A DNA stretch of 64,000 bases, from the NCBI GenBank assembly GCA_035544915.1, contig DASZZO010000053.1, forward strand, positions 373 to 64,372, given 5' to 3'. The notes under the pieces were generated by a model. That model was not told the origin of the DNA and did not search any database. It worked only from the letters and a program-made list of their open reading frames with translations. The DNA is from Gemmatimonadaceae bacterium (GTDB taxonomy: Bacteria; Gemmatimonadota; Gemmatimonadetes; Gemmatimonadales; Gemmatimonadaceae). The translations under genes were made by a program, and so were the position numbers. This document shows, piece after piece, positions 3,881 to 32,920 of the stretch (positions are counted from its first letter, which is position 1; each line of letters begins with the position of its first letter).

Positions 3881-3881
3881 G

Positions 3882-12321: not shown

Positions 12322-12340
12322 AGCGGAGAGTCTACTGCAG

Positions 12341-12460
12341 TCGAGGGTTTGGAGTCGAGGGTTTGGAGTCGAGGGTTTGGAGTCGAGGGGTTTGGAGTCG
12401 AGGGTTTGGAGTCGAGGGTTTGGAGTCGAGGGTCGAGAGTTGAGGCATGAGAGTTGAAAG
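12341..12460. repeat. Tandem array of six 14-15 bp units TCGAGGGTTTGGAG, followed by a GAGAGTTGAG-type arm
   Basis: Direct reading: units at 12341, 12355, 12369, 12383 (15 nt), 12398 and 12412, then TCGAGGGTCGAGAGTTGAGGCATGAGAGTTGAAAG. Confidence 0.9.
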
Positions 12461-12475
12461 CCGCGTCGGATGACA

Positions 12476-12504
12476 TTGCGTTGCAAAGTGCTTTTTGCTA
12501 CACT
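12476..12504 (+). promoter_or_regulatory. Candidate sigma-70-type promoter (TTGCGT-N17-TACACT)
   Basis: -35-like TTGCGT at 12476-12481, a 17-nt spacer, and -10-like TACACT at 12499-12504, about 38 nt upstream of ATG 12542. The promoter consensus of this lineage is unknown. Confidence 0.25.
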
Positions 12505-12541
12505 CCTACTCCTGACCTCGACCCCTTTCTAAAGGCCGCGG

Positions 12542-12829
12542 ATGAACGAATCACCCATGAAGCAGCCGAGCGCCCTCTTGCCAGTGGCAATGTCCGTCGC
12601 CGCCCTGGCCCTCGTGCTCGTGCACGCCGCGATGTACGGCGTTGTCCATGAGGCCGACGAGGGGACGCCGGCCCATCTGTTCCAGATACTCATGGCCGGA
12701 CAGGTGCCGATCGTAATGTATTTCGTGGCGAAGTGGGTGCCGCGCGCCCCGAGGAAGGCTTTGGCGGTGCTTGCATTGCAAGCTGCAGCGGCGATCGCAG
12801 CGTTTACGTCGGTCTACTTTTTGACCTGA
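12542..12829 (+). CDS. Small hypothetical membrane protein (about 3 TM segments)
   Basis: 95-aa ORF with hydrophobic stretches (LLPVAMSVAALALVLV, ILMAGQVPIVMYFVA, ALAVLALQAAAAIAAF) and high GC3. No recognisable family. Confidence 0.5.
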   Translation: MNESPMKQPSALLPVAMSVAALALVLVHAAMYGVVHEADEGTPAHLFQILMAGQVPIVMYFVAKWVPRAPRKALAVLALQAAAAIAAFTSVYFLT

Positions 12830-13049
12830 GTCGAGAACAGGCGAGGGTTGAGGGTCGAGAGTCTTGAGTTGGGGGTCTGGACCGTTTGGACTACTCCCGG
12901 TCGTCTCCCGGAACCGACGCGTTCGGGAGGGTAGCAAAAACAGAGTTGAGAGTTGAGAGTTGAGAGTCGGGGGAGATCCCGCAACTCGCATCTCTGGACG
13001 CGCGACTCTCGACCCCCAACTCTCAACCCTCGACTCCAACCTCTCGACT
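12828..13049. repeat. Composite GAGAGTTGAG-type inverted-repeat element without ORF cargo
   Basis: G-rich arms at 12828-12875 and 12941-12973, a remnant motif CAACTCGCATCTC at 12982-12994, and a C-rich arm at 13005-13049 (ACTCTCGACCCCCAACTCTCAACCCTCGACTCC...). It fills the whole spacer between the stop at 12829 and the ligD ATG at 13056. Confidence 0.8.
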
Positions 13050-13055
13050 GTTTCA

Positions 13056-14768
13056 ATGCCTCCCCTCGAGACGTACCGGCGCAAGCGGGATTTTTCTGCG
13101 ACGGCCGAACCACGGGGCGCTGCCCTGCGCCCCGCTACGCCTGGATCCCTCCGCTTCGTCATCCAGAAACACGCGGCGTCGCACCTGCACTTCGATCTCC
13201 GGCTGGAACTCGACGGCGTCATGAAGAGCTGGGCCGTGCCGAAGGGGCCGAGCATCGACCCGCAGGTCAAGCGACTCGCCATGCAGGTAGAGGATCACCC
13301 GATCGAGTACAACCGCTTCGAGGGCACCATCCCCGAGGGCGAATATGGCGGCGGTACCGTCATGATCTGGGATCGCGGGACGTATGAGCCGCTCGAGGGT
13401 GGACTCGACGAGCTGCGCGAGGCATTCAAGAAGGGGACCATCAAGTTCCTCCTGCACGGTGAACGGTTGCACGGCTCATGGGCGCTGGTGCGCATGAATC
13501 GGGGCGCCGGCCGCCAGTGGCTCCTCATCAAGCATCGCGACCGCTACGCGCGGACCGGAGGCAACATCGTCGGCCGCGTGCTGACTTCCGTGGCGACCCA
13601 ACGCACCATGAAAAGCATCGCGGGCGAGGAGCGCGCACGGGCTCGCAGCGCCGTGAAGACCAGTGAGCGGCGCGCGCCCACCCGCACGACCCCGACGCGC
13701 GTCATCCCCAGGCTTGAACCCATGCTCGCCCGGCTCGGAACCTCATTGCCCGAGGGCAAAGGCTGGACGTTCGAGCCCAAGTATGACGGTATTCGTGTGC
13801 TCGCCTTTGCGGATGGCGATGCCGTAAGCCTGGTGACCCGGAATCAGCTGGACAAGGCATCACAGTTTCCCGACATCGCCGGCGCGCTCACGGCGCTTTC
13901 CCGGAAAAAGCGTCGCCCGTTCGTGCTCGATGGGGAGATCGTCGCCTACGCCGGACGAGTGCTCGGTCGCTTTCAGGAGCTGCAGGAACGCATTCACGAA
14001 ACCAATTCCGCGAAGATCGCGGGTCACATCCGGAACAGCCCTGCGGCGCTGATCGCCTTCGACCTCCTGATGGAAGGCGTCGTTTCATATGTGAAGGAGC
14101 CGCTGGCAACGCGCCGCGCCACCCTCGAGAAACTCTTCGCCCGCCAGCGTTCGCCTGCTCTGCGCCTCGGCGTCTCGATCGAGGGGGGCGGCGATCGACT
14201 CCTGGAGAAGGCTACGAAGGAAGGCTGGGAAGGCATCATGGCGAAGCGCCTCGACGCGCCGTATCGCACGGGAAAACGGTCGGATGCCTGGCTCAAGCTC
14301 AAGCTGGAGGCGCGGCAGGAGTTCGTCGTAGGCGGCTGGACCGAGCCACGGAGATCGCGCGAGCACATCGGATCCCTTCTCCTCGGCTACTGGAAACGCG
14401 GCAAGCTGATCTATGCCGGGCACACCGGTGCAGGATTCTCGCGCCGCACGCTGGCCGACCTGGCGGCGCGCCTGGCTCCATTGGAACGCAAGACGTCGGC
14501 CTTCGAGACCGAGCCGCGCCCCAACGCCCCTGCGCATTGGACGAGACCCGAGGTCGTGGTCGAGATCAAGTTCAATGAATGGACCGCCGGTGGCCGCCTC
14601 CGGCGGCCGGTCTTCCTGGGTGTGCGCGATGACAAGGACGCGCGCACGGTTGTTCGCGAAGGCCCCGCGAGGCAGCGGCAACAGCGCCGCGTGCGGCCAG
14701 CTGCGACCGCCCGCCGCACGGTGCAAGCCACCGCGACCAGCCGCGCGACGGCGAAAGGCGCGGCATGA
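13056..14768 (+). CDS. ligD: DNA ligase D, 3'-phosphoesterase + ATP-dependent ligase domains
   Basis: The PE domain is LRFVIQKHAASHLHFDLRLE..SWAVPKGPS..HPIEY..GEYGGG. The ligase domain carries the adenylation motif EPKYDGIRV. ATG 13056; upstream ORF residues are repeat DNA. Confidence 0.9.
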   Translation: MPPLETYRRKRDFSATAEPRGAALRPATPGSLRFVIQKHAASHLHFDLRLELDGVMKSWAVPKGPSIDPQVKRLAMQVEDHPIEYNRFEGTIPEGEYGGGTVMIWDRGTYEPLEGGLDELREAFKKGTIKFLLHGERLHGSWALVRMNRGAGRQWLLIKHRDRYARTGGNIVGRVLTSVATQRTMKSIAGEERARARSAVKTSERRAPTRTTPTRVIPRLEPMLARLGTSLPEGKGWTFEPKYDGIRVLAFADGDAVSLVTRNQLDKASQFPDIAGALTALSRKKRRPFVLDGEIVAYAGRVLGRFQELQERIHETNSAKIAGHIRNSPAALIAFDLLMEGVVSYVKEPLATRRATLEKLFARQRSPALRLGVSIEGGGDRLLEKATKEGWEGIMAKRLDAPYRTGKRSDAWLKLKLEARQEFVVGGWTEPRRSREHIGSLLLGYWKRGKLIYAGHTGAGFSRRTLADLAARLAPLERKTSAFETEPRPNAPAHWTRPEVVVEIKFNEWTAGGRLRRPVFLGVRDDKDARTVVREGPARQRQQRRVRPAATARRTVQATATSRATAKGAA

Positions 14769-15769
14769 CGCGCGCACGCGGCGACGACATCGTCTCGCAG
14801 TTGACAGCAATCGAGCGCGCGCCAAAGGGGAGCGGGACACTCTCATTCCCCGGTGGTGCCACACTCGCCGTCACGAACCTCGGTAAGCTGTGGTTCCCGG
14901 GCGAGGGAATCAGCAAGGGCGGGGTCATGCGCTACTACGCGCGCGTTGCCCCTGTCATGCTGCCGCTGATCGCGGATCGTCCACTGGTGCTCAAGCGGTT
15001 TCCCGATGGCATCGACGGACCGTCGTTCTACCAGCAGGTAGCCCCCGCCGAAGCGCCGGATGACGTCCGGGTCGGGCTCGTCAATACGTCAAAGGGCAAG
15101 GAGCGGCGCCTGATCGGCGGGGATCTGCCCACACTCCTTTACACGGTGCAACTGGGCGCCATCGACGTGCATCCGTGGCTGTCCCGCGTTCGCACGATTC
15201 AATGGGCGGACTATTCGGTGCTGGACCTCGATCCAGGCCCGCGCGCCGGCTTCGCGCGGGCCGTGCGCATCGCGCTCCGCATTCACGCGGCGCTCAAGAA
15301 GGCGGGATATCGGGCCGCCATCAAGACGTCCGGCTCGCGCGGGCTGCACGTGTTCATACCCATGCCGCCGCGCACGCCGTTTCCGGCGGCGCAGGAGTTC
15401 GGGCGCACCATTGCCGCCGCCATCGCCACCCAGCATCCGAAGGATGCCACGGTTGAGCGCATGCTGGCGAAACGACCCGGCGATGCGGTGTACATCGACT
15501 TCCTGCAGAACGCCGAAGGCAAGAGCGTGGCCGGTCCGTTCAGCTTGCGCGCGCGCAAGGGCGCCACAGCGTCCGCCCCACTCGCCTGGAGCGAGGTAAC
15601 CGAAAGCCTCGACCCAGCGGCGTTCACCATCGCAACGGTTCCAGCCGCGGCCGCGCGCCGCGGACGGCTATGGCTGAGCGCGCTGACGCGGCGCGAACGC
15701 GCTACGACTTCGCGCGCGCGGCCGAAAAGGGGCGCGACATCGCGGGCATCGAGCCGTCGGCGGCCCTGA
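14765..15769 (+). CDS. LigD polymerase/primase domain protein (separate gene)
   Basis: LTNLGKLWFPGEGISKGGVMRYY, DRPLVLKRFPDGI, IDVHPW, LDLDPGP and GSRGLHVFIPM are AEP/LigD-Pol motifs. Its ATG overlaps the ligD stop (ATGA). Confidence 0.85.
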   Translation: MTRARGDDIVSQLTAIERAPKGSGTLSFPGGATLAVTNLGKLWFPGEGISKGGVMRYYARVAPVMLPLIADRPLVLKRFPDGIDGPSFYQQVAPAEAPDDVRVGLVNTSKGKERRLIGGDLPTLLYTVQLGAIDVHPWLSRVRTIQWADYSVLDLDPGPRAGFARAVRIALRIHAALKKAGYRAAIKTSGSRGLHVFIPMPPRTPFPAAQEFGRTIAAAIATQHPKDATVERMLAKRPGDAVYIDFLQNAEGKSVAGPFSLRARKGATASAPLAWSEVTESLDPAAFTIATVPAAAARRGRLWLSALTRRERATTSRARPKRGATSRASSRRRP

Positions 15770-16160
15770 TTTCAGCGGTCCCGGTAAGCGCGTCACCGCT
15801 CACGGTGAAATCGTACGTGGTAACCATCGATACGTGAGACTGGTTGCCGTTTACGTTCAGAACAGCATCCACGGGCTCTCCGGCGACTCGTACACGGCCA
15901 TGGGCGATGGTTCCGCGGAGGTGCCGTGGCTTGGTCCCCGGTTCGGGCGGCGGAGTCAGCACTGTCCACGTGCCGAACACCGAGTCGCCCTTCACCTCGA
16001 AAACGATGCTGGCCTTGCCCTTATCCGCCGAAACCTCGCCGTTTTCGTTTCGAATCTTGTGCTCGAAATCGGCAATCCAGCTGCCCGCGACGGAGGCCTG
16101 GCCCATGGCCGGGCGGGCGAACAAGGCCAGCAGGGCAACGAGCGCAAGGCGGATGGTCAT
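15702..16160 (-). CDS. Hypothetical secreted protein
   Basis: ATG 16160 follows GAGGAA. Signal peptide MTIRLALVALLALFARPAMGQA. 152 aa, beta-rich. The 3' end overlaps the LigD-Pol gene by 68 bp (convergent). Confidence 0.6.
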   Translation of the reverse strand: MTIRLALVALLALFARPAMGQASVAGSWIADFEHKIRNENGEVSADKGKASIVFEVKGDSVFGTWTVLTPPPEPGTKPRHLRGTIAHGRVRVAGEPVDAVLNVNGNQSHVSMVTTYDFTVSGDALTGTAEIRAADGSMPAMSRPFSAARAKS

Positions 16161-16274
16161 CTTCACGGTTCCTCGTGTGCGGAAGGGTTCAGCGGATTGG
16201 TCACCCGACATCCCCGGGCGGTTGCCCGGCGAATGTGTCACCTTTATTCGGAACTGGGCCCGAGCGGAGGTGGC

Positions 16275-17905: not shown

Positions 17906-17938
17906 CTTCGGCGCGCGCTTGCAACCGGCCGCGCACTC

Positions 17939-20041: not shown

Positions 20042-20172
20042 TGCTGAATCCTCGGGCGAGTCTGTAGCGCTTCCCCACGGCATTGGAGCGAGGGTGGGAG
20101 CTGCAGTGGAACTACGGATGACAGGGATATCTTACGGATGTTCGCAGATACTTGCTCGGGGGAACTCCCCAG

Positions 20173-21075: not shown

Positions 21076-21211
21076 GACCGGAGCGCGCGTTGAGGTGGCG
21101 TACCCAGGCGCGCAGCCATTGAAGCGGCGCCTTGTTCCTGCGAATGTTATGATGGCTGTTGCGCCGTAGCCAGCGGCACCCTGGCCACACACCGTTCGCA
21201 AGGAGCGCCGT

Positions 21212-21775: not shown

Positions 21776-21799
21776 GGAGGGCGGGAGGCGATATCCGCC

Positions 21800-23116
21800 C
21801 TAACACGGCAGCGTGAGCTTCGCCTCGCACCCGCGCCCATTCTGCCGCTCGGTGAGCGCCAGCATCCCGCCATGCGACTCGGCGATCTGACGTGACAGCA
21901 CCAGCCCGATGCCCGTGCCGCCAGGCTTCGTCGTGAAGAAGGGAACGAAGAGGTTGGCCGTCTCGGGCAGGCCGGGTCCGTCGTCCTGCACGACGAGCTC
22001 GAAGCGCGAGGCATCGGCCGCCCAGCGAACGCGTACGCCAGCGTCCTTTTCCGGTGACGCGAGTACCGCGTCCACGGCATTCGCCACGAGGTTGATGAGT
22101 AACTGATCCAGCTGGTCGCCATCGGCGTTCAGTGTCATGGCTGGTCCGCCGAGGATCTCCACGGGCATCCGCGTCTCGAGGCGCACGGTGCGGTTGACCC
22201 AGGCAGCAACGTCGACTGTGGAGCGCCGCGGAGGAGGCAGTTTCGCGAGTCGCGTGTACGACGCGAGGAACCGGCCGAGCGCCTCCGAGCGCGACGTGAT
22301 CACGCCGAGTCCACGCTGGAGGTCCTCCCGCAGCTCCCCCTCCGGAGGCGAGCGGCCCAGCAGCTCGTGCAGGCGCTCGGCGATTGACTTGATGGGGGTG
22401 ATCGAGTTGTTGATCTCGTGCCCCAGCACGCGCACGAGGCGCTGCGTGGCCAGGCGTTCTTCGTCGCGCAGTGCGCGACTCACGTCCGCGAGCACCACGA
22501 ACTGGTGCGGCCGGCCACCCTGCCGGAAGTCTCCGCGCCGCACTTCCCAGCGGGCGCGCTGGCCACCGAGCGACAGCTCCACCATCCGCGGCGCCACGCC
22601 CTGCAGGCATTCGCCCAGCCCCAGTTCCTCGGCGCGCCGGCCCAGCAGTCGTTCGGCGGGCTGAGCGAGCAATCGCTCACCAGACGCGTTCACCACGCGA
22701 AGCGCGCCCGCGTCGTCGAACGCAAAAACGGCGACGTCGATTTCCGCCATCACGCGGCGGAGCAGTGCGGTGGCCTCGAGCGAACCGAGCCGCCGTTCGC
22801 GCAACTCGTCCATGAGCGTGTTGATCTCGAGCATCGCGAGCCCCAGCGAATCGTCCGCGTCCGCACGGCGCGAACGGAGCGAGTAGTCCTGCTCGCGGAT
22901 GGCCGCGAGCATGTTGGAGAGGGTTTGCAGCGGTCGGACCACACGCTCGCGCAGGGTGAGGGCGAGCACGAGCCAGCAGATCAGGAGCAGCACGGTGAGC
23001 GTCCACTGCGTGCGCGGGGCGTAGTCGCCCGCCCAGAGGAGCCAGAGCGCCACGGCAAGGGCGGGAACGGGCGCGGCGAGCGCGAGGCGGGTAACCTGGC
23101 GCTCGTGGCTGCTCAT
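21800..23116 (-). CDS. Sensor histidine kinase (2 TM + HAMP + HisKA/HATPase)
   Basis: H-box HEINNSITPIKSIAERL, N-box LINLVANAVDA, G-boxes DDGPGL and GTGIGLVLSRQIAESHGG. Confidence 0.85.
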   Translation of the reverse strand: MSSHERQVTRLALAAPVPALAVALWLLWAGDYAPRTQWTLTVLLLICWLVLALTLRERVVRPLQTLSNMLAAIREQDYSLRSRRADADDSLGLAMLEINTLMDELRERRLGSLEATALLRRVMAEIDVAVFAFDDAGALRVVNASGERLLAQPAERLLGRRAEELGLGECLQGVAPRMVELSLGGQRARWEVRRGDFRQGGRPHQFVVLADVSRALRDEERLATQRLVRVLGHEINNSITPIKSIAERLHELLGRSPPEGELREDLQRGLGVITSRSEALGRFLASYTRLAKLPPPRRSTVDVAAWVNRTVRLETRMPVEILGGPAMTLNADGDQLDQLLINLVANAVDAVLASPEKDAGVRVRWAADASRFELVVQDDGPGLPETANLFVPFFTTKPGGTGIGLVLSRQIAESHGGMLALTERQNGRGCEAKLTLPC

Positions 23117-23134
23117 CGAGTCGCGGGCCGCGAG

Positions 23135-24490
23135 TTAGAGGCCGTGTCGCTGCAAGCGCCGGTAGAGCGCGCTGCGCGACAGACCCAGTGCCTGGGCGGC
23201 CAGACTCACGTTGCCGTCGAACCGCGAAAGGGCCTTGGTGATGAGCACGCGCTCGACTTCTTCGAGGCTGAGTTCATCGAGGCGCGGCGCCGCCGCGCTC
23301 GCGGCGCCGAGCGAGAAGTCGCCGGCGCGCACCGTGTCGCCTTCGGCAAGGAGCGTCGCGCGCTCGACCGCGTGCGCGAGTTCGCGCACGTTGCCCGGCC
23401 AGGCGTACGCCATGAGCACGCGCATCGCGTCGGCATGGAACATGCACGCGCGCTTGCCGTAGCGCGTGGCATGCTGCGCCAGAAAATGCACCGCGAGCAG
23501 CGGAATGTCGTCACGCCGCTCGCGAAGCGGCGGCAGGTGCAACTCCACCGTGTTGATGCGAAACAGGAGGTCTTCGCGAAAGCGGCCCGCGGCCACTTCG
23601 GCGCGCAGGTCCACGTTGGTCGCGGCCAGAATGCGGACGTCAACGCGGCGCGTCTTGGACGACCCCACGCGCTCGAGCTCGCCGGACTGGAGCACCCGCA
23701 GCAGCTTGGCCTGCTGCGCGAGTGACATGTTGGCGACCTCGTCGAGAAAGAGCGTGCCGCCGTCGGCGAGCTCGAAGCGGCCGATGCGATCCGTTTTCGC
23801 ATCCGTGAATGCGCCTTTGGTGTGCCCAAAGAGTTCGCTCTCGAACACGCCATCGGAGAGCCCGCCAAGGTTCACCGTGACCATCGCGCGCCCGGCTCGC
23901 GGCGAGGCGGCATGGAGCCAGCACGCTACGACCTCCTTGCCGGTGCCGTGCTCACCAGTGATGAGGGCATTCGCGTCCGAAGGCCCGATCCGCTCCATCA
24001 ACCGGAGCAGCGGCTGCATGGTGCCCGATTGTGCGATGAGACGGGGCGCACCAGGCGGACGCAGCGCGAGATTCTCGCTCTCGAGCCGCTGGCTCCGGCG
24101 AATGGCGCGCCCGAGTTCAACCTGCGTGCGCAGGACGTTGAGCAGGCGCGTATTGTCGAACGGCTTCTCGATGTAGTCGCGCGCTCCGCGGCGCACCGCC
24201 TCAACCGCCCCCTCGATGCTGCCCCAGGCGGTCATGACGACGACGGGCAGCGTTCCATCGAGCTGCTGCAAGCGCGACAGGAGATCGAGTCCCTCGGTCC
24301 CGCCCGTGGTGTCGCGGGTGTAGTTCATGTCCATGAGCAGCGCATCGAAATCGCGCGCGGTGACGGACGCGGCGACTCCCCCGGGCGACGTGACAGTCTC
24401 GACCTCGTACCCCTCGCTCTTCAGGAGGAGGCGGAGGGCCTCGAGCACATCGCGATCATCATCGGCAACGAGCAGGCGGGTTGGACGCAT
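23135..24490 (-). CDS. Sigma-54-dependent response regulator (NtrC family)
   Basis: Receiver domain (LLVADDD..DALLMDMNY), AAA+ Walker A GEHGTGKE, GAFTDA loop, ESELFGH, and a C-terminal Fis-type HTH (AAQALGLSRSALYRRL). Confidence 0.9.
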   Translation of the reverse strand: MRPTRLLVADDDRDVLEALRLLLKSEGYEVETVTSPGGVAASVTARDFDALLMDMNYTRDTTGGTEGLDLLSRLQQLDGTLPVVVMTAWGSIEGAVEAVRRGARDYIEKPFDNTRLLNVLRTQVELGRAIRRSQRLESENLALRPPGAPRLIAQSGTMQPLLRLMERIGPSDANALITGEHGTGKEVVACWLHAASPRAGRAMVTVNLGGLSDGVFESELFGHTKGAFTDAKTDRIGRFELADGGTLFLDEVANMSLAQQAKLLRVLQSGELERVGSSKTRRVDVRILAATNVDLRAEVAAGRFREDLLFRINTVELHLPPLRERRDDIPLLAVHFLAQHATRYGKRACMFHADAMRVLMAYAWPGNVRELAHAVERATLLAEGDTVRAGDFSLGAASAAAPRLDELSLEEVERVLITKALSRFDGNVSLAAQALGLSRSALYRRLQRHGL

Positions 24491-24499
24491 CGCTCAAAG

Positions 24500-25159
24500 C
24501 TACACCAGCCAACCATCCTTGAGATTGATGATCCGGTTGCCGTACTTCGCGTTCTCCTCGGAGTGCGTGACCTGCACGATGGTTGTGCCGGCGGTGTTCA
24601 AGCGCTTGAACAGCTCCATGATTTCGCGCCCCTGCGCCGAGTGCAGGTTGCCCGTCGGCTCGTCGGCAAGGAGCAGGAGCGGTTCGTGAATCAGCGCGCG
24701 CGCCACCGCCACCAGTTGCTGCTGCCCTCCGGAGAGCTGCGCAGGATACAGGTCTTTCTTGGCGACCATTCCGAAGCGGTCGAGGGTGTCGGCCACGATC
24801 GACTGGCGTTCGGTCTTCTTGATATCCCGGTAGGACAGCGGGATGTCGAGGTTCTCGGCGACGGTGAGATCGTCGAGGAGGTGATACTGCTGAAAGACGA
24901 ACCCGACATACTTCTTGTGCAACGCCACGCGCCGCTTGGTGTCGAGCTTGTGCACGGCGTTTTCGAGCAGGTCGTATTCGCCCGTCCATGCGCCGTCGAG
25001 CATGCCGAGTACGGCGAGCAGGGTGGACTTTCCGGCACCCGACGGGCCCATCACCGTCACGAACTCACCCTGCTTGATGTCGAGGGTGATGCGGCGGAGG
25101 ACAAAAGTCTGGCCGCCGGCAATTGGGTAACTCTTTTCGATGTTTCTCAGGGAAATCAT
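24500..25159 (-). CDS. ABC transporter ATP-binding protein (MacB/LolD-type)
   Basis: Walker A GPSGAGKSTLL, signature LSGGQQQ, Walker [15 protein letters not shown] 25159 directly abuts the TAA of the preceding ORF. Confidence 0.9.
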   Translation of the reverse strand: MISLRNIEKSYPIAGGQTFVLRRITLDIKQGEFVTVMGPSGAGKSTLLAVLGMLDGAWTGEYDLLENAVHKLDTKRRVALHKKYVGFVFQQYHLLDDLTVAENLDIPLSYRDIKKTERQSIVADTLDRFGMVAKKDLYPAQLSGGQQQLVAVARALIHEPLLLLADEPTGNLHSAQGREIMELFKRLNTAGTTIVQVTHSEENAKYGNRIINLKDGWLV

Positions 25160-25588
25160 TTACGGGCAGTCGAGAGTTGAGAGTCGAGAGTTGAGAGTTC
25201 TGGAGACGGGAGACTTGAGTTTTGAGATGTGAGTTGGGCGCCTTGTGCTTCGCATCAGCGCCATGAGCATCCGCTGGATCTCGTCGAGGTTCGCGGTGAC
25301 GCGGTGGAGGTCGGACGAAGGAATGAATCCGAGGTCGCCGGCAATGAGCAAATGACTCTCGAGCTCCCGTGATGAGGCGATCGCGATCTGGTACAGACGG
25401 GCCTGGTCCCCGGAGGTCTTGCGCCCCGAACTCTCCGCGATGTTTGCGGGAATCGAAACTGCCGCCCTTTGAATCTGAGATGAAAGGCCCTGAAGCTCGG
25501 CGGCCGGGAACGTCCTGGTGAGCCGGTATGCAACCACAGCGAGCGCACGCGCTCGCTGCCAGACAATCAACTCCTTGAAGTCAGCCAC
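25160..25588 (-). CDS. Four-helix-bundle protein (23S rRNA intervening-sequence protein / Avd family)
   Basis: ADFKELIVWQRARALAVVAYRLTRTFP..LSSQIQRAAVSIPANIAES.G.....ARLYQIAIAS.RELESHLLIAGDLGFI is the canonical family pattern. GTG 25588 is preferred, with TTG 25618 as the alternative. The last ~12 codons are encoded by the repeat arm. Confidence 0.85.
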   Translation of the reverse strand: MADFKELIVWQRARALAVVAYRLTRTFPAAELQGLSSQIQRAAVSIPANIAESSGRKTSGDQARLYQIAIASSRELESHLLIAGDLGFIPSSDLHRVTANLDEIQRMLMALMRSTRRPTHISKLKSPVSRTLNSRLSTLDCP

Positions 25589-25759
25589 CGCGTCACCATG
25601 AATGGAGAGGTGACTCAATCTGGCATTTGGGAAACGTACCGGCGGACCGTTGCGTCGCCAGACGTCTCAAAGGAATGCCGCTCGAAACTCTCACCTCGCA
25701 ACCCTGAACTCCCGTCCCCCCAGCTCTCACCGCCGGGCTCTCAACTCTCGTCTGCCCCC
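25160..25759 (-). mobile_element. Inverted-repeat-bracketed four-helix-bundle cassette (IVS-like / MITE-like, putative)
   Basis: The arm at 25164-25219 and the arm at 25703-25758 are near reverse complements; 19 of the outermost 20 nt match. The element exactly fills the spacer between the ADOP stop (25759-61) and the ATPase ATG (25159). Confidence 0.5.
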
Positions 25760-28161
25760 TATTCCGTTCTCAATGCGACCACCGGATCCACCCGCGCCGC
25801 CCGGCGCGCGGGCAGATAGCAGGCGACCAGGGCGACAACCGCCAGCATCAATGGGACCGCGATGAACGTGAGTGGGTCGGTGGCAGGCACGCCGAACAGC
25901 TGCTTCCGCAAAAGTTGTCCGGCGCCCCAGGACCCGAAGAGACCGATGACGGTCGCAACGGCGATCACGCGGGCACCGCCGCCAAGCAGCAGTCGCACCA
26001 CCTGGACATGCCGCGCGCCGAGCGCCATGCGGATTCCGACTTCTCGCGTGCGCTGCAGCAGGACAAACGACATCACGCCGTACACGCCCACCAGGGCGAG
26101 CACCAGGGCGAGCAGCGCGAATGCCCCCGTGAGAACCAGCGTGAAGCGCGGCAGCGCTGTCTGTCGGCGCAGGAAGGCGGTCATGGGCTGCACGCGCCAC
26201 ACGGGCTGGTCGCGGTCCACCGACCAGATCGCTGCGCGCACGGATTTCGCCAGGGTGGCCGGATCGCGGTCCGTGCGCACGACGAAGCTGTTGAACGCCC
26301 CCGCGGCCTGCGATGTCGGCTGGTAGAGCTGCGCGCTTGGCGGATCGCCGAGCGCCTGTTGCGTGATGGTCCCTACGACGCCCACCACGGTCACCCAATC
26401 CGGCTGCGGCGCTCCCAACAGCTTGAGCCGCTTGCCGAGCCCCGATTTTCCCGGCCACTCGCGACGTACGAACTCCTCGCTGACGATGGCCACGTGCCGT
26501 GTCTCAGGCTTGTCAGTCGCGTTGAAGTCGCGCCCTTCGAGAAAGCGTATACGGAGCGCGGAGAAAAATCCGTCGGATACGGTGTTCTGCAGCGCCGACG
26601 AGGGCACCACAGCCGGCGCCGCGCCCTCGCGTTCGTAGGGAACGACGCCAAAGTTGCCGCTCAGCGGCACGGAGCGCACCAGCGCGGCCGCCCGCACGCC
26701 CGGCACGCGGCGAACCTCGTCCAGTGCGCGAGTGAGAAACTGGGTGATCTCCTCTGGCGTCTGATACTTCGATGCCGGCAGCCTGAACTCGCCGCTCAGC
26801 AGGTTGCTCGTGTCGAAACCGGGGTCGACGTGCTGGAGCGCCGCCAGACTCCGCGCGAGCAGACCCGCTCCGACAAGAAGGACCACACAGACCGCGAGCT
26901 GCGCGGTCATCAGTACGGTGCGGACATCCACCCGGCGTCGCGCGCGCCCGTCGCCGGAACGCATATTGAGCGCCTCCTTGAGGTCGGGCCGCGCTGCAGA
27001 CAGCGCCGGCACGAGGCCGGCCACGAGTCCCGCGCCAATCGTCACGGCCAGCGCGAACAGCAGCACTCGCATATCGAGCGTGACCGCGCCGAAGGCACCG
27101 AGCCCGCCCGGGACCATCGCAACGAGCGTGTCGAGCGACCAGCCGGCCAGCACGAGCCCTGCCACGCAGCCGAGCGCGGCGAGCACGAGGCTCTCAGTCA
27201 GGAGCTGACGAATGAGCCGCGAGCGGCCGGCCCCGAGTGCGGCGCGCAGTGAAAGTTCACGACGGCGGCCGGTTGCGCGCACGAGCTGGAGATTCGTGAG
27301 GTTGGCGCACGCGATCAGGAGCACGATGCCCACCGCGGCGAAAATAGTCAGCAGCGGATCGCGGTTTCCGGCGACAGTGTCCCTGAGGGATACGACGGTC
27401 GCGCCGATGCCCGCGTTCGCGGCGGGATACTCCGTCGCGAGCTCGCCGGCGATGCCCGAAAGATCGCGCCGGGCCTCCGCGAGCGACACGCCCGGCTTGA
27501 GGCGGCCCCAGGCCCATACATTCTTCGCGTTGCGGACGTACCATGACGCACCCGGCGCCGTGGGAAGTGGCAACCAGGCATCCACCGGCGCGAGCGGATC
27601 GCGAAACTCCTTCACGGTCACGCCGATCACCTGGCGCGGCCGGCCGTCGAGCACCAGTGTCCGTCCCACGATGCTCGAGTCGCCGCCGAACCGCGTGGTC
27701 CACGCAGCCCACGAGAGCACAGTCACGTCAGGCGCCGTCCCCTGTGCGGTCTCCTCAGGCCGGAAGAGCCGGCCGAGCGCGGCGCGGGCGCCGAGAACCG
27801 AGAGTGTGCTCGCCTCGACGTAGGCCCCCGACACCCGGTCAGGCGCGTCGCGTCCGGTGAGGCTCACGCTCTGCTGCCGCTCGACTCCGATGCTGGCGAA
27901 CGTCCGGCTGCGGGCGCGAAAATCCTCGATGTCGGGGATCGAGAGCAATCGTCGCTCGGCCCCGCGCTCCGCCCAGAGCATCACCAGGCGGTCGGCCTCC
28001 GGGTACGGGAGCGGACGCAGGAGCACGGCGTCGATCACGCTGAAGATCGCGGTGTTCGCTCCGATGCCAAGCGCAAGCGTGAGCACGGCGGCAAGCGTGA
28101 AGCCGGGGCTCCGGCGCAGGGAACGAAGGGAGAAGCGGAGATCCCTCAGGAAGTGGTCCAA
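25759..28161 (-). CDS. ADOP-family ABC permease (duplicated MacB/FtsX-like domains)
   Basis: The N-terminus [59 protein letters not shown] is the ADOP signature. 800 aa with two MacB_PCD+FtsX modules. Apparent TTG start. Confidence 0.9.
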
Positions 28162-28168
28162 AGGAGAG

Positions 28169-28366
28169 CCGTCGAGAGTTTGGAGGCGAGAGTTGGGAGT
28201 TGGGGGATGAGAGTCGAGAGTTGAGAGTTGAGAGTTCCAACTCGCAGTCCAAAGTCCCCGGAGTCCGGTCCGGCGTCGAGAGGCCTCGCGATCAGCAACA
28301 CCTGAACTCTCAACCCTCGACTCTCGACCCCCAAACTCTCAACGCCCGACCCTCAACTCTCGACGG
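28169..28366. repeat. Cargo-less GAGAGTTGAG-type inverted-repeat element (two ~66-nt arms, ~64-nt loop)
   Basis: The termini CCGTCGAGAGTT (28169-28180) and AACTCTCGACGG (28355-28366) are perfect complements, and the arms are about 85% complementary by eye. The loop begins with the remnant CAACTCGCA (28238-28246). Confidence 0.85.
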
Positions 28367-28368
28367 CC

Positions 28369-29082
28369 TTAGTGCGCCCCTGCGCCTGCCATCGCCTGCT
28401 CATCCACGACCCGCCCGTCGAACAGATTGATGCTGCGGTCGGCGTGGAGCGCGTAACGGGGATCGTGCGTCACCATGCAGATCGTGGCGCCGTTCCGGTT
28501 GAGCTCGCGCAGCAGTTCCATCACCGACTCGCCGTTGACGGAGTCGAGGTTTCCCGTGGGCTCGTCGGCGAGGAGGATTGCGGGATCGCCCGCCACCGCC
28601 CGGGCGACGGCCACGCGCTGTTGCTGGCCGCCGGAGAGCTGCGCGGGATAGTGCTTGGCGCGGTGCGACATCCCGACGCGCTCGAGCGCGGCGTGCACCC
28701 GCTCCTTGCGCTCGGTCGCGCTCATGCCGCGATAGGTGAGCGGCAGCTCCACGTTCTCATAGACGGTGAGATCGCCGATCAGGTTGAATGCCTGGAAGAT
28801 GAATCCGATCTGGCGGTTTCTCACGCGCGCACGATCGGCGGCGTCGAGGCCGGCGACGGGGCGGCCGTCGAGGAGATACTCACCATCGCTCGCCGTGTCG
28901 AGCAAGCCGAGGATCGAGAGCAATGTGGTCTTGCCGCAGCCCGACGGTCCGGAAATGGCGACATACTCGCCCTGCTTGATCTCGAGGTGCACGTCCGCAA
29001 GCGCGTGCGTCTCGACCTCGTCCGTGAGAAAGACCTTTTTGATGCCCTGCAAGCGGATGAGCGGCTCGCCGTTTGTCGCCAT
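28369..29082 (-). CDS. ABC transporter ATP-binding protein (MacB-type)
   Basis: Walker [13 protein letters not shown], signature [14 protein letters not shown], Walker [13 protein letters not shown]. Confidence 0.9.
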
Positions 29083-29123
29083 CGGTTTCTCCGTGGGAGT
29101 GTACCTGCCAGGTGCCTTTCGTC

Positions 29124-30368
29124 TTACTTGATTCTCACGCGCTCCACATTGTCGTACTGTGACATATCAGACAGTATGACCCGGTCCCCTGGTTGCAGTC
29201 CGCGCACGATCTCGACCGTGGTGACCGAGCTTCGACCGAGCACTACCTGCGTGCGAACCGCCGCCTTGCCGCCGTCTACCAACCTGAAGATGCCCACCGT
29301 TCCGGTTCCCGCACCCGACGCGGGCCGCCCGGTATAGAGAACGTTCTTGAGCTGTTCGATCTGGATCGTGCCATCGATGCTCAGGTCCGGCACAGCGCCG
29401 GACGGGAGAGGACCATCGAGCGCCACGTCAATCGTGAGTGTGCCCGTCTGCGCCGATGGATCCTTCCGTGAGACATGTCCGGGGATCAGACCGTTGCGGG
29501 TATCTATGGAAGCGAGCTGGCCAATCTGCACGTCCTTGGCCTGCGACTCGGGAATGCGCAGCACCGCCTTGAGCTTGCCGGGCTGCACCACCTTGGCGAG
29601 CGTCGTGCCTTCCGGCACCCACTGGCCCATCTGCAGGGTGAGGTCCTGGAGCACGCCGGCCTCGGGCGCGCGGACGTGCAATGAGTTCAGCTTGGCATGC
29701 TGGAAATCGGCGATCTGCTTGAGCCGGTCGAGGTTCGCGGTCGCCACGGCGATCTGCGAATCGGCCGCCTGGCGCATCAGGGCCAGACGCTCCTTCTCGA
29801 CCCGCACGCGCGTCGTCAATTCTTCGGCCACTGCCTTCTTGTTGTTGTACTCGAAGGTCGAGATGAGCTTGAGCCGGAGCAGTGAATCGGCGGCGGCGGC
29901 CTCCTGGGTGACGCTGACGAACTGCGTGTTGGTGGTGGCGACCGCGCCTTCCTGCGAGAGGCGGTTGTTCGTCAGCGTACTCCGGAGCGACACGAGATCG
30001 GCGCGGGCCTGGCTCAATGCCTGGTCCGCCTGCATCGTCGCGATCTGCTGGTCGGGGTTGGAGAGTTCGAGCAGGATCTCGTCGGCGCCAACCACGGCCC
30101 CGTTCACCGCGATGAGCCTTTCCACTCGCGCCGACGCCTGCGCCGTGATCCAGCGAATGCGCTCCGGCAGGAGGTTTCCGGGACCTCGTACCTCGCGCAC
30201 CACGTCGCCCTTCCGGACGGAGTCCATGAGGAGCGTACCGCCATCCACGGTGGGCGACGCCGGCTGGAGCCGCGAGAGCGCGAGCGTGATGAGCACGAGC
30301 GCGAGCACGCCAATGCCGATACCGACGTTGCGTGCGGTCTTCTTTTTAGGAGGGCGGGCGACGTCCAA
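29124..30368 (-). CDS. Periplasmic adaptor subunit (HlyD/MacA family)
   Basis: N-terminal TM anchor (VGIGIGVLALVLITLAL), a lipoyl/barrel-sandwich region, a long coiled-coil (QADQALSQARADL...) and a C-terminal beta-barrel. Apparent TTG start at 30368. Confidence 0.85.
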   Translation of the reverse strand: MDVARPPKKKTARNVGIGIGVLALVLITLALSRLQPASPTVDGGTLLMDSVRKGDVVREVRGPGNLLPERIRWITAQASARVERLIAVNGAVVGADEILLELSNPDQQIATMQADQALSQARADLVSLRSTLTNNRLSQEGAVATTNTQFVSVTQEAAAADSLLRLKLISTFEYNNKKAVAEELTTRVRVEKERLALMRQAADSQIAVATANLDRLKQIADFQHAKLNSLHVRAPEAGVLQDLTLQMGQWVPEGTTLAKVVQPGKLKAVLRIPESQAKDVQIGQLASIDTRNGLIPGHVSRKDPSAQTGTLTIDVALDGPLPSGAVPDLSIDGTIQIEQLKNVLYTGRPASGAGTGTVGIFRLVDGGKAAVRTQVVLGRSSVTTVEIVRGLQPGDRVILSDMSQYDNVERVRIK

Positions 30369-30411
30369 GCGAAACCTCGTTCGGTTGAATCACTCTACGC
30401 CGTGAAGGAGG

Positions 30412-30427
30412 AGCAAGTGTCATGCCG
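30412..30427 (-). promoter_or_regulatory. Sigma-54 (-24/-12) promoter candidate
   Basis: The minus strand reads cGGCATgacacTTGCt. GG and GC are separated by exactly 10 nt, as in the consensus TGGCAC-N5-TTGC. It lies about 43 nt upstream of the MacA-like start. Confidence 0.5.
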
Positions 30428-30568
30428 CCGCTATCGGTCAGTAAGTCTAAAGCGCCACGAGGCTTAGCTCACCCATTCTGCATTTGGACAGCGCCGGCCG
30501 GCGCAGGGTTGGGATTGCCCGTCCCACAAACGGACACCCGCTCGCAGGTAGCACGGCCTCCAAGGCTT

Positions 30569-31363
30569 TCAGTGGACGAGCAGCGCGCGCGCCAACCGCT
30601 CGGAGAACTCCCGTCGCGACATCGCTGCGGCAATCTCCGATGGCGGCACACCGACAATCCTTCGCGCATGTGCCACCAGGAGCCGCTGACGAGCGTATCC
30701 GCAGCGCGCGGTGACTGCAGCGACCGAGCGTTTCTCCTCCACGAGCGGTTCCCACACGCGCGCGAGTCGGGCCGTGTCGAGCAACATCGAGGCGCCCTCG
30801 ATTCCGATACGCTCCATCCAGCGATCCACTGAGCGCCTCGCCAACCCGCTCGCTTCGGCCAGGTCATCCACCCAGCGTGGGAGTGGCCCGCTCGCGAAGA
30901 GTGAAACAGCGGCCGTTTGCAGCGTATCGGGAAGCCTGCGAAGATGCGGCGCGGCCCGGTTCAGCAGGTGCGCCGGTGCCGACGGCCCGTACAGGGAGGC
31001 GAGTTTATGGGTCAGCAGCTCGGCAACGTTGTCCTCTCCGCGCAACACCAGCTCGTGCGCACCGAGTTCGGCGGCGCGCACGATGCGACGCGCGGCGGAG
31101 GGCGTGAGCTTGGTGAAGAGCAACACCGGCACCCGGCTGTGCATGAGGGGTGCGAGAATCATCTCGAACTCCTCTTCGCTGATGACGCCCGGATCGAACA
31201 CGAGCACATCGCACGCGCGGTCGCGCATTGCGGCGGCCGCAGCAGTGGCGTTGTTTTCGCGCAGCAGCGTATGTTCGCTCGACCCCGCGCTTTGGAGCAT
31301 GCGGTACGAGGTGTTCGGCAGCAGCGCCAAGACTCGCATCGAGTGAGTGTGCAGGCGGTCCAC
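30569..31363 (-). CDS. Putative transcriptional regulator: receiver-like N-domain + degenerate AraC-type HTH
   Basis: The C-terminus RRSVDRWMERIGIEGASMLLDTARLARVWEPL..SVAAVTARCGYARQRLLVAHARRIVGVPPSEI fits AraC HTH spacing. The N-terminus resembles a receiver fold. Start is GTG 31363 or ATG 31339. Confidence 0.45.
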   Translation of the reverse strand: MDRLHTHSMRVLALLPNTSYRMLQSAGSSEHTLLRENNATAAAAAMRDRACDVLVFDPGVISEEEFEMILAPLMHSRVPVLLFTKLTPSAARRIVRAAELGAHELVLRGEDNVAELLTHKLASLYGPSAPAHLLNRAAPHLRRLPDTLQTAAVSLFASGPLPRWVDDLAEASGLARRSVDRWMERIGIEGASMLLDTARLARVWEPLVEEKRSVAAVTARCGYARQRLLVAHARRIVGVPPSEIAAAMSRREFSERLARALLVH

Positions 31364-31470
31364 CAGAGTGTCAAGACTGGCCGAAAAGCGTCCCCGGCAT
31401 TTGCTTGTTTCCAGGCAGCTGCGCGGATACCTTTCGAGCCCTTACCCGGGGAGCGGCCGCGCCGAGCGGA

Positions 31471-31510
31471 ACTCGTCTTCCGTCGTCTTCTGTCGTCTTC
31501 TGTCGTCTTC
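31471..31510. repeat. Four tandem 10-bp units (Y)GTCGTCTTC
   Basis: Direct reading: actcgtcttc cgtcgtcttc tgtcgtcttc tgtcgtcttc. The array ends 25 nt upstream of the tRNA. Confidence 0.9.
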
Positions 31511-31535
31511 CGAATTCCCGGACTCATCAAGAAGG

Positions 31536-31609
31536 GCGCGAGTAGCTCAGCTGGATAGAGCGTCGGCCTCCGGAGCCGAAGGTCGTGGGTTCGAATCCCG
31601 CCTCGCGCA
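31536..31609 (+). tRNA. tRNA-Arg (anticodon CCG)
   Basis: Manual cloverleaf: acceptor GCGCGAG/CTCGCGC, D arm GCTC-AGCTGGATA-GAGC, anticodon arm TCGGC-CTCCGGA-GCCGA, T arm GTGGG-TTCGAAT-CCCGC, discriminator A. CCA is not encoded. Confidence 0.9.
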
Positions 31610-31639
31610 TGTTCCCTCCCCTCCCGTGTCGTTCCCCCA

Positions 31640-32896
31640 TTGGACATTTCCGAACTCCGCAGGAAATCCGTCGCCGACCTCAAGGTCATGGCTGAAGGGC
31701 TCCGCGTCGAAAACACCTCCGGCCTGCGCAAGCAGGACCTGATCTTTCGCATCGAGCACGCACTGCTCGATTCGGATGTCACGCTGCGCGCCGAGGGCAC
31801 GCTCGAACTCCTGTCCGAGGGATTCGGATTCCTGCGCAGTGCCGACTGGAACTACCTCGCCGGGCCGGACGACATCTACGTGTCGCAGACACAGATTCGG
31901 CGGTTCAATGTGAAGACCGGCGACACCATTCGCGGCCGCGTGCGCCCGCCCAAGGCATGGGAGAAATACCTGGCGCTCCTGCAGATCGAATCGGTCAACG
32001 GCATCGAGCCGGACGCGATTCAGAGGCGCGTACCGTTCGACAGCCTGCGCCCGCGCTATCCAGACCAGCGAATCCGTCTCGAGACCAGCGAAGGCGACCT
32101 GTCGATGCGCGTGGTGGACATGATCGCGCCCCTTGGCAGGGGACAGCGCGGGCTGATCGTTGCGCCGCCGCGTGCGGGCAAGACGATCCTGCTCCAGAAA
32201 ATGGCCAACGCGATCGCGGAGAACCATCCCGAAGTGCAGCTCATCGTCCTGCTCATCGACGAGCGGCCGGAAGAGGTCACCGACTTCATCGCCACGGTGC
32301 CGAGCGCCGAGGTGATCAGCTCGACCTTCGATGAACCGGCCTCACGCCATGTGCAGGTGGCCGAGATGGTCATCGAAAAGGCGAAGCGACTTGTGGAGGC
32401 GGGACGGGACGTGGTCATCCTGCTCGACTCCATCACGCGGCTCGCGCGCGCACACAATACGGTGACGCCGATGTCGGGCAAGATTCTCTCCGGCGGCGTC
32501 GACGCCAAGGCGCTCGAAAAGCCGAAGCGTTTTTTTGGCGCGGCACGGCGCATTGATGGCGGCGGCTCGCTCACCATCGTCGCGACGGCGCTGGTGAACA
32601 CGGGCTCGCGCATGGATGAGGTGATCTTCGAGGAGTTCAAGGGGACGGGTAACCTGGAGCTCGTGCTCGACCGCGAGATCGCCAACCGACGCGTGTTCCC
32701 GGCGATCGACATGCTCAAGTCCGGAACGCGCAAGGAGGAGCTGTTGCTCACCGAGAAGGAGAAGAACCGGGTGTTTCTCATCCGGCACTTTCTGGGTGAC
32801 ATGCCGGCAGAGGATGCGATCCTCTTCCTGCTCAAGCGAATGGCGCGGACGAAGAACAATGACGAGTTCTTCGAGAAGATGGCGGAGGGGGAATGA
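31640..32896 (+). CDS. rho: Transcription termination factor Rho
   Basis: [20 protein letters not shown] (Rho N-terminus), GFGFLRS, Walker A APPRAGKT, and RNA-binding and ATPase domains over 418 aa. TTG is the only in-frame start. Confidence 0.9.
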
Positions 32897-32902
32897 AACA
32901 GC

Positions 32903-32920
32903 CGAGGGTCGAGAGTTGAG
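32903..32920. repeat. Solo GAGGGTCGAGAGTTGAG motif copy
   Basis: CGAGGGTCGAGAGTTGAG lies 7 nt after the rho stop. The same word occurs in the arms at 12426-12445 and 12848-12862. Confidence 0.7.

Follow-up and report, generated by a model that had tools for sequence, protein, structure and literature searches.

Heptamer repeat arrays at gene junctions and around a four-helix-bundle gene in a Gemmatimonadaceae genome

Repeat arrays and genes of the window

The window analysed here is a 64-kb stretch of a Gemmatimonadaceae genome (positions 373 to 64,372 of contig DASZZO010000053.1; coordinates are those of the window unless another locus is named). It possesses five loci of one repeat family, in which arrays of degenerate heptamers (GAGAGTT) are followed by a complementary array and give imperfect stems of 40-75 bp. 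One locus encloses a gene for a four-helix-bundle (4HB) protein of the PF05635 family, three have no open reading frame (ORF) and one is a fragment of 2.5 units. In this gene family a position within a hairpin of inverted arrays is the normal state, as the comparison of relatives given below shows.

The initial annotation had taken the word GAGAGTTGAG/CTCAACTCTC as the mark of the family. The word has 10 exact matches in the window against 0.07 expected, a count reached by none of 100 shuffles, and 23 one-mismatch matches against 3.2 expected. The exact matches are confined to the five loci, and position 5060, the sole one-mismatch match outside them, is within chance expectation. Sequence reading and Tandem Repeats Finder revealed that GAGAGTTGAG is a by-product of degenerate tandem heptamers (GAGAGTT, GAGGGTT, GAGAGTC, GGGAGTT), with periods of 7, 14 and 21 at each of the four main loci. 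The degenerate unit G[AG]G[AG]GT[TC] and its complement form clusters only at 12326-12455, 12843-12877, 12948-12968, 13004-13031, 25172-25199, 25686-25749, 28174-28236 and 28305-28361 (0.06 clusters in shuffles), and the G-type cluster precedes the C-type cluster in every case. The defining feature is the period-7 inverted array rather than the 10-mer word; the family is real and the word represents one flavour of it only. The elements are as follows.

12339-12460, solo G-type array, AGTCGAGGGTTTGG x6.7 followed by GAGAGTTGAGGCATGAGAGTTGAA (Tandem Repeats Finder, unit clusters)
12836-13052, ORF-less hairpin, arms 12836-12877 and 13011-13052 (42 nt, 76% complementary)
25164-25235, G-type arm on the plus strand; relative to the sense of the 4HB gene it is the 3' arm, and it codes for the C-terminal tail of the protein (…SRTLNSRLSTLDCP)
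25686-25757, C-type arm on the plus strand; relative to the sense of the 4HB gene it is the 5' arm, matching 25164-25235 over 72 nt at 74% complementarity
28168-28367, ORF-less hairpin, arms at about 28168-28236 and 28302-28367
32904-32920, plus strand, fragment of about 2.5 units (GAGGGTC GAGAGTT GAG) without partner arm

The gene map is based on Pfam and NCBIfam annotation of the flanking ORFs. On this map, flanking codons lie 1-17 nt from every element on at least one side, and the arrays are situated outside coding sequence near start or stop codons, with one exception, the arm which encodes the 4HB tail. The earlier description of five intergenic loci, most of them touching codons, agrees with the exact matches, which fall only in five spacers. 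The statement that none lies within a called gene except the element's own ORF tail was also borne out. The list of five loci stands, except that 32903-32920 is no equal member, as it has only about 2.5 units and no partner arm.

The solo array 12339-12460 lies in the spacer between a divergent acetyltransferase gene (start 12321, 17 nt away) and a 95-aa gene (start 12542). Its 12339-12433 portion is a 14-mer array, AGTCGAGGGTTTGG x6.7, with two heptamers per unit. It has no adjacent complementary arm, though on the far side of the 95-aa gene 12980-13050 is complementary to it at 74-84%. The hairpin at 12836-13052 fills the next spacer, beginning 6 nt past the 95-aa stop (12829) and ending 3 nt short of the LigD ATG (13056); it contains an inner array, (AGAGTTG)x3.7, at 12942-12967 and has an RNA fold of -116.7 kcal/mol (z -5.5). 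The cassette at 25160-25759 is composed of 72-nt arms, spanning 25164-25757, around a minus-strand ORF (fold z -5.7), and its C-type arm ends 1 nt from the stop of an ADOP permease gene (25759-25761). The hairpin at 28168-28367 forms a nearly unbroken stem of about 75 bp (-124.7 kcal/mol, z -8.7) and is positioned 6 nt from the ADOP permease start (28161) and 1 nt from an ABC ATPase stop (28369). The fragment is situated 7 nt past the rho stop and 31 nt short of the RuvX ATG. The window elements gave no Rfam match and contain no sigma-70-like promoter and no intrinsic terminator; no rRNA was found in the window and PADLOC gave no defence-system match. The genes around the elements are as follows.

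11437-12321, minus strand, N-acetyltransferase (Pfam/NCBIfam)
12542-12829, plus strand, conserved 95-aa gene (gene map)
13056-14768, plus strand, LigD (Pfam/NCBIfam)
21800-25159, minus strand, histidine kinase, sigma-54 regulator and ABC ATPase (Pfam/NCBIfam)
24500-25159, minus strand, the ABC ATPase (Pfam/NCBIfam)
25160-25588, minus strand, 4HB gene, 142 aa, GTG start (PF05635 23S_rRNA_IVP, TIGR02436)
25759-28161, minus strand, ADOP permease (Pfam/NCBIfam)
28369-29082, minus strand, ABC ATPase (Pfam/NCBIfam)
29124-30368, minus strand, HlyD-type protein (Pfam/NCBIfam)
31640-32896, plus strand, rho (Pfam/NCBIfam)
32952-33374, plus strand, RuvX (Pfam/NCBIfam)

The 95-aa gene was considered as a second type of cargo and rejected, as it is widely conserved and its homologues elsewhere have no arrays around them. 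It encodes a predicted membrane protein of no Pfam or NCBIfam family with 1281 homologues, the best 120 of which share 66-100% identity and occur in Gemmatimonadota, Acidobacteriota and Chloroflexota in varying contexts. Within the roughly 60 nt upstream of the gene, a similar promoter/operator-like motif (…TTGCAAAGTGCTTT… / …ATAGTGCAAAGTACTTTG…) recurs. A separate repeat region is situated at 58400-59103 between two well-supported genes. Degenerate repeats of 21 nt (CGAGGCACGYGMAAYG…), rich in A on the plus strand, extend over about 650 nt, and the region can be read as an ORF of 158 aa (58627-59103) whose product would have repeats of seven residues (EARxxxx type).

The four-helix-bundle gene and its protein

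The 4HB protein of the window scored 112.5 bits against TIGR02436 (cut-off 24) and 112.5 bits against PF05635 (cut-off 33.8), and it is 100% identical to an annotated protein of a Gemmatimonadaceae metagenome-assembled genome (MAG). We know of no role for this family, named after the intervening sequences (IVSs) of rRNA, outside diversity-generating retroelements (DGRs). Residues 6-117 match XCC0516, which crystallised as a pentamer (PDB 2GSC, E 3e-19), and the protein also matches the PHROG family 'Avd protein of DGR' (E 2.7e-9). Avd is a nucleic-acid-binding DGR accessory protein (PMC10053308). The neighbours in the window are those of no DGR, being an ABC ATPase, the ADOP permease, a sigma-54 regulator and a kinase, and the orthologous loci are alike in this respect. 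The 4HB protein shows no transposase fold and has no known catalytic activity.

The last ~25 residues of the protein are the translation of the stop-free arm, and the 4HB stop codon directly adjoins the start codon of the ABC ATPase downstream (TAAATG). Compared with an orthologue of 88% identity, the core showed a dN/dS of 0.10, while the arm-encoded tail showed 0.72 with low dS. The core is under purifying selection as a functional protein, and the values of the tail indicate constraint at the nucleotide rather than the protein level. The arrangement of stop and start suggests translational coupling of the 4HB gene to the ABC ATPase through the 3' arm. No Shine-Dalgarno sequence was seen in the arm ahead of the ATPase.

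Four-helix-bundle genes and heptamer arrays in other loci

To place the window cassette among its relatives, 80 metagenomic loci around the 4HB genes most similar to the query (359 kb) were analysed. Arrays of period 7 number 143 in them, while the other periods tested (4 to 12) gave 0-14 each. Flanks were examined for the 66 genes with 200 nt on both sides, where an inverted repeat had to beat all 20 shuffles, and 376 random pseudo-genes on the same contigs served as controls. Inverted repeats flank 61 of the 66 genes but only 8.2% of the pseudo-genes. A period-7 array was present on at least one side in 55 of 66 (3.2% of controls) and on both sides in 39 of 66 (0.3%). In the typical layout one array lies just upstream of the gene and a complementary array just downstream. 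The layout is also found in 22 of 25 copies on viral contigs, and none of the 80 loci matched rRNA, all being in protein-coding contexts.

The arm unit varies by locus, with GTCAGCN, TTAGCNN, GGGTCTA, ACTGGGG, TTGGTCA, GGCAGGA, GGGTTTC and GAGTCTG among the units. Pairs of 4HB genes share the unit (with at most one mismatch) in 56% of cases at 65% protein identity or above and in 6% below 45% (rho -0.37), while the flanking genes are unrelated in 59 of the 64 pairs with at least 65% identity. Unit similarity following protein similarity in unrelated contexts indicates joint travel, or joint regeneration, of gene and arms. Two distant arrays have the same unit in 22% of comparisons within a contig, against 7% across contigs. 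In 35-37 of 46 cassettes the leading arm is the one rich in G or purines.

Two possible signs of how the cassettes are transcribed were rejected. Co-orientation with the neighbours (81% and 69%) is not clearly above that of ordinary genes and was dropped as a sign of dependence on host transcription. A promoter of its own in the loop also failed as a general feature: the window has no sigma-70-like site, and extended -10 motifs are not enriched, although a few viral copies have one. Five viral loci (L223, L231, L232, L233, L248) carry an extended -10-like motif (TGTATAGT, TGATATAAT, TGGTATACT) in the loop between the 5' arm and the 4HB start, which suggests that these copies, unlike most chromosomal ones, have their own promoter. 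At locus L180 a 4HB cassette (697-1038) lies directly upstream of the 6S RNA gene ssrS (1102-1278). Eighteen PF05635 genes were reported inside cas operons, for example at the cmr3/cmr2 junction, and a CRISPR-related role was suggested for them (PMC3936711); they may be cassettes inserted at gene junctions.

GAGAGTT arrays in other genomes

The exact 17-mer GAGAGTTGAGAGTTGAG was found in at least 120 stretches of representative genomes of 32-69% GC. The hosts among the matches listed comprise Bacteroidota, Planctomycetota, Verrucomicrobiota, Acidobacteriota, Gemmatimonadota, Fibrobacterota, a cyanobacterium, Clostridia and others. Among these matches, arrays often begin at a TAA or TAG stop or beside a start codon, and a complementary partner within 600 nt is present downstream in 21 of 85, upstream in one and absent in 63. 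The 21:1 direction of the partners implies a strict polarity, with the G-rich arm first on either strand. As a sign of intergenic location, the 17-mer lies inside long ORFs in 23% against 49%, which is the expected direction; this ORF-span test was set aside as too noisy, since the complement strand is stop-free. A Planctomycetota MAG (L016) and a Bacteroidia MAG (L034) have GAGAGTT arms around a 4HB gene in the exact layout of the window. The GAGAGTT-flanked 4HB proteins of other phyla match the window protein weakly (phmmer E 2e-19 and 3e-16).

History of the window cassette and the insertion in leuS

The closest relatives of the 4HB gene (62-88% identity) are all situated at the orthologous position in Gemmatimonadales, in an operon with the order CusB-like protein, ABC ATPase, ADOP permease (not in all), 4HB, ABC ATPase, sigma-54 regulator and kinase. 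Residence in the same operon indicates that the window cassette is old and vertically inherited. In four of five orthologues compared (the window, L201, L202, L210 and L211) the 4HB stop abuts or overlaps the downstream ATPase ATG (TAAATG, TAGATG, ATGA), and in L211 the 4HB ORF ends before the ATPase start. The initial annotation had tied the repeats to the 4HB ORF as a protein-coding parent. The tie is genuine and extends to the relatives elsewhere (61 of 66 against 8% of controls), while the word 'parent' was not borne out, as the 4HB protein lacks a transposase fold and the window copy has long been resident in its operon by vertical descent.

The 5' arms of two Gemmatimonadales clades cannot be aligned with each other (scores of 20-29, equal to background), yet within each clade the pairing of 5' arm with 3' arm is retained (47-60), showing that the arms co-evolve. 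The ORF-less hairpins are less constant. L202 has none between ATPase and permease. L211 has an extra one at 4745-4915 just upstream of the 4HB gene, composed of the 5' arm of the cassette and a nearby complementary copy, which illustrates how a cassette can give rise to ORF-less hairpins. In the window, the ADOP permease gene has on either side a hairpin of one and the same flavour, and the gene is absent from the otherwise syntenic operons of L210 and L211, so the hairpins mark the boundary of an insertion or deletion.

A cassette with ACTGGGG/AGTGGGG arms was found inside leuS at two loci (L187, 2403-5198; L191, 2803-4398). In L187 the 4HB gene occupies 3472-3984 and arrays lie at 3158, 3575, 3965 and 4857, the second, outer pair of arrays being also in-frame. 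The LeuS frame is open through the arms and the whole 4HB gene as a 932-aa ORF on a contig which spans the gene, and the 4HB protein is read in another frame. In L191 the LeuS frame is open to the contig end. The leuS cassette is hard to explain other than by insertion followed by selection.

Published heptamer repeats and the XCC0516 locus

Heptamer repeats of the short tandemly repeated repetitive (STRR) type are said to have been described in cyanobacteria by Mazel in 1990. STRR-like units, CCCCAGT and TTGGTCA, flank 4HB genes in L187, L146 and L173. The genomes of Xanthomonas carry about 186 GGGAATC arrays, with 70-75 convergent pairs, and these are mostly transcribed; an intergenic heptameric simple sequence repeat (SSR), GGGGA(C/T)T, is known in Nostoc (PMC4692102). 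TAACTGA repeats occur in Beggiatoaceae and cyanobacteria (PMC4679880). Both papers treat the repeats as G-quadruplex-forming or regulatory SSRs, and the 4HB protein is unmentioned in them (PMC4692102, PMC4679880).

Orthologues of XCC0516 were located between accB and accC in X. campestris, X. sacchari, Stenotrophomonas and a Dyella-like genome. The gene is preceded by GGGAATCGGGAGTGGAGAATCGGGAATCG and followed by CCCATTCCCCATTCTCGACTCCCTATTCCC, the latter running straight into the accC ATG. The GGGAATC arms around XCC0516 identify the published Xanthomonas repeats with the arms of a 4HB cassette at the accB-accC locus, and the arm nucleotides are kept across genera of Xanthomonadales. In X. 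campestris (L212), position 7 of the unit is non-complementary between 2931-2960 and 3343-3372 (C/A, G/C, C/G, C/G), as also listed for L217, L251 and L252; such mismatches in L212 would give a stem of 6-bp blocks split by single mismatches.

A literature search, which covered few subscription-journal papers and is absence of evidence only, found no paper linking the PF05635 family to heptamer repeats. The initial annotation had known of no description of the link. This agrees with the search for the specific tie, while the general concept of a repeat family with its gene is known from REPIN-RAYT systems.

Maintenance of the arms

Mismatches between the arms of 60 loci were compatible with G:U pairing on the sense strand in 87 cases and of A:C type in 88, besides 220 transversions. 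G:U and A:C being about equal, selection on a sense-RNA stem is not detectable, and a selected RNA stem was rejected as the explanation of the arms. Arm identity was 0.67 in the best register, 0.57-0.63 in unit-shifted registers and 0.58 within an arm; the best register being barely above the shifted ones, exact mirror-copy arms made by palindromic duplication were rejected. A function as stop-codon insulator was considered, as (GAGAGTT)n has TGA in all three frames and its complement is stop-free, yet the density of stop codons is not polar across the 46 other cassettes (17 against 24). Length polymorphism of arrays within a population was also rejected, since the cassette does not differ among eight assemblies of one species. 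Together with the polarity of the arms, these results favour a DNA-level or strand-symmetric upkeep. We lean to a DNA-level process, such as template switching or conversion between the arms, over selection on RNA as what keeps them complementary. Template switching at quasipalindromes is an established candidate process. Upkeep at the DNA level does not prevent a duplex in transcripts.

Origin of the elements and alternative explanations

The observations to be accounted for are the anatomy of the elements, the family-wide association, the dispersal in unrelated contexts, the long vertical residence, the selection on the protein and the co-evolution of the arms. We favour, with moderate confidence, a cassette that dispersed, became resident and left derivative hairpins. 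On this view gene and arms would form a cassette, selfish or commensal, that spread as one unit to gene junctions, at times to helices of rRNA and even to leuS; once inserted, it would persist by vertical descent for long under purifying selection. The copy at 25160-25759 represents its complete form. The ORF-less hairpins and solo arrays would be its derivatives or by-products, arising through duplication of arms, ORF loss and slippage. In transcripts that read through the element, RNase III would be expected to act on the duplex of 40-75 bp, as it does in rRNA IVSs, and ribosomes translating the 4HB gene through the stop-free 3' arm would reach the abutting ABC ATPase start. RNase III cuts the stem of rRNA IVSs whose enclosed ORF is of the PF05635 family (PMC4990558). 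This excision is the only experimentally grounded behaviour of the architecture, and by analogy it would be a consequence here.

Several points weigh against the cassette explanation. Among the matches listed, a 4HB gene is next to only 2 of about 88 (GAGAGTT)n arrays, and a partner arm is lacking in 63 of 85; with so few adjoining and so many solo, most arrays may arise independently of the cassette. The palindromes of the window, read directly from the sequence, have no target-site duplication, and the element encodes no recombinase, transposase or reverse transcriptase. Neither the window cassette nor that of Xanthomonadales shows recent mobility. Many contigs carry several unrelated heptamer flavours, and the 80 loci are not an unbiased sample of PF05635. 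The flat ratio of G:U to A:C mismatches counts on the same side, and obligatory excision from RNA would destroy the leuS mRNA, whose frame is open through the cassette.

Instead of being the cargo of a cassette, the 4HB protein could be a trans-acting factor which recognises, generates or maintains the arrays, like the partner in REPIN-RAYT systems; it might bring in a polymerase, as Avd does with the reverse transcriptase of DGRs, with the ORF-less hairpins as a dependent population. RAYT genes are flanked by the repeats on which they act, and the 4HB gene likewise is flanked by the repeats on which it would act. The window has a single such gene beside four loci without an ORF, the flavour of the arms follows the similarity of the proteins, and the core combines purifying selection with vertical retention. 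G-rich repeats added to both 3' ends of a break would also yield the 21:1 G-first polarity. XCC0516 lies inside one of the 70 convergent pairs among about 186 GGGAATC arrays of Xanthomonas (PMC4692102), and the 4HB protein is homologous to the nucleic-acid-binding Avd (PMC10053308). However, it has no catalytic motif or known enzymatic activity, unrelated flavours occur together on one contig, and GAGAGTT surrounds the weakly matching 4HB proteins of other phyla (phmmer E 2e-19, 3e-16); we regard the proposal as unlikely. Its wide form, in which PF05635 proteins are the dedicated, repeat-generating or repeat-maintaining partner of heptamer arrays in bacteria and viruses, is held just as tentatively. 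Such a system may be a non-HUH counterpart of RAYT-REPIN, possibly recruiting a polymerase like Avd in DGRs, and if true it would explain the STRR repeats (open since 1990), the ORF of rRNA IVSs (open since 1993) and the G-first polarity.

Selection by the host offers a different view, with the hairpins as operon punctuation, serving in RNA or DNA as processing sites, transcript stabilisers or insulators, or translational couplers, and the 4HB as a protein of the host, RNA-binding or regulatory, whose expression from such sites is incidental. The stems have high stability and lie in same-strand operons abutting start and stop codons, the 4HB stop abuts or overlaps the next ATG in four of five orthologues, and arms are conserved across Xanthomonadales genera and Gemmatimonadales orthologues; most Xanthomonas arrays were moreover reported as transcribed (PMC4692102). 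Such punctuation is distinctly improbable in view of the absence of a G:U over A:C bias, the arbitrary unit sequence between loci, the varying presence of hairpins in orthologous operons (none between ATPase and permease in L202), the cassettes in unrelated contexts, viral contigs and leuS, and the lack of intrinsic-terminator or sigma-70-like sites in the window elements. Plain slippage, by which heptameric microsatellites arise in unconstrained sequence and the 4HB tie and inverted symmetry are incidental, would suit the 63 solo arrays among the 85 matches listed and arms that are arrays of degenerate units, not exact mirrors (0.67 against 0.57-0.63). It is very unlikely, as 92% of 4HB genes against 8% of controls have flanking inverted repeats, both arms share a unit which differs between loci, the polarity is 21:1 among the matches listed, the arms co-evolve at orthologous loci and arm nucleotides are conserved across genera.

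Significance

Two old puzzles, the heptameric repeats and the PF05635 protein family, prove to be different sides of one object. The intergenic heptamer repeats (STRR, Xanthomonas GGGAATC, Beggiatoa TAACTGA) have no accepted origin or function; they now have a candidate protein partner, and the protein a candidate nucleic-acid ligand. XCC0516 between accB and accC of Xanthomonas is a tractable model, for which a crystal structure, genetics and published RNA-seq are available. The name 'rRNA IVS protein' is a misnomer for 80 of the 80 relatives examined. For annotation, the arms create spurious ORF extensions such as tails of LNSRLSTL type, and they may break short-read assemblies. Contigs ending in repeat regions have been reported (PMC4679880).

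Comparison with known systems

The 23S (and 16S) rRNA IVSs, as in Leptospira and Coxiella, have complementary termini that form a stem around an S23p/PF05635 ORF, and ORF-less versions exist (PMC4990558, PMC11270868). The window cassette has the same layout, with 72-nt arms of 74% complementarity, a fold z of -5.7 and a PF05635 ORF, and as in IVSs the element lies within the host transcription unit and is co-oriented with it. Its arms are tandem heptamer arrays, and the stems of rRNA IVSs were compared by overall layout. Unlike IVSs, the window element and 80 of 80 relatives are in protein-coding contexts, and RNase III excision would be problematic for the leuS insertion. With the heptameric SSRs (Xanthomonas, Nostoc, Beggiatoaceae, STRR) the elements share 7-nt tandem units, intergenic position near start or stop codons and frequent convergent pairs. 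The ORF-less copies of the window belong by definition to these SSR/STRR repeats, a class already reported but unexplained. They differ from the repeats reported as G-quadruplexes in that the GAGAGTT unit cannot form one.

Eukaryotic foldback transposons have long inverted termini of short tandem subrepeats, with most copies lacking an ORF, and the palindromic elements of Rickettsia are tolerated as in-frame gene insertions, which the leuS cassette resembles. The likeness to both is one of anatomy only, without homology, in other hosts and with mobility here only predicted. The initial annotation had likened the elements to REP/BIME (bacterial interspersed mosaic elements) or ERIC (enterobacterial repetitive intergenic consensus). 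This likeness was not sustained: the copies lack a consensus or a conserved palindrome, and their arms consist of heptamers in tandem, with a unit that varies by locus. As regards a REP/BIME palindrome, only the heptamer unit is common to the copies, with arms of 17-120 nt and unrelated loops, and the gene flanked by the repeats is of PF05635 only, the RAYT scan not being extended to the rest of the window. ERIC was rejected on size and core, not by consensus alignment, the copies in this Gemmatimonadaceae host being 17, 122, 217, 200 and 600 nt without a common core. A miniature inverted-repeat transposable element (MITE) was rejected as well, since no direct repeats surround the palindromes and the only ORF-bearing copy encodes the 4HB protein.

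REP/REPIN-RAYT systems were reportedly described by Nunvar in 2010, Bertels and Rainey in 2011 and Ton-Hoang in 2012. REPIN-RAYT systems combine many extragenic palindromic repeats with a single-copy, vertically inherited gene flanked by inverted repeats. The present elements differ from them in that the flanked gene encodes a 4HB protein, not an HUH/Y1 transposase, and in that the arms are degenerate and tandem, without a conserved REP sequence or GTAG motif and with a unit that varies within the genome. They share with them a vertically inherited gene flanked by repeats and, probably, many ORF-less copies, and by this likeness REPIN-RAYT is the best functional analogy.

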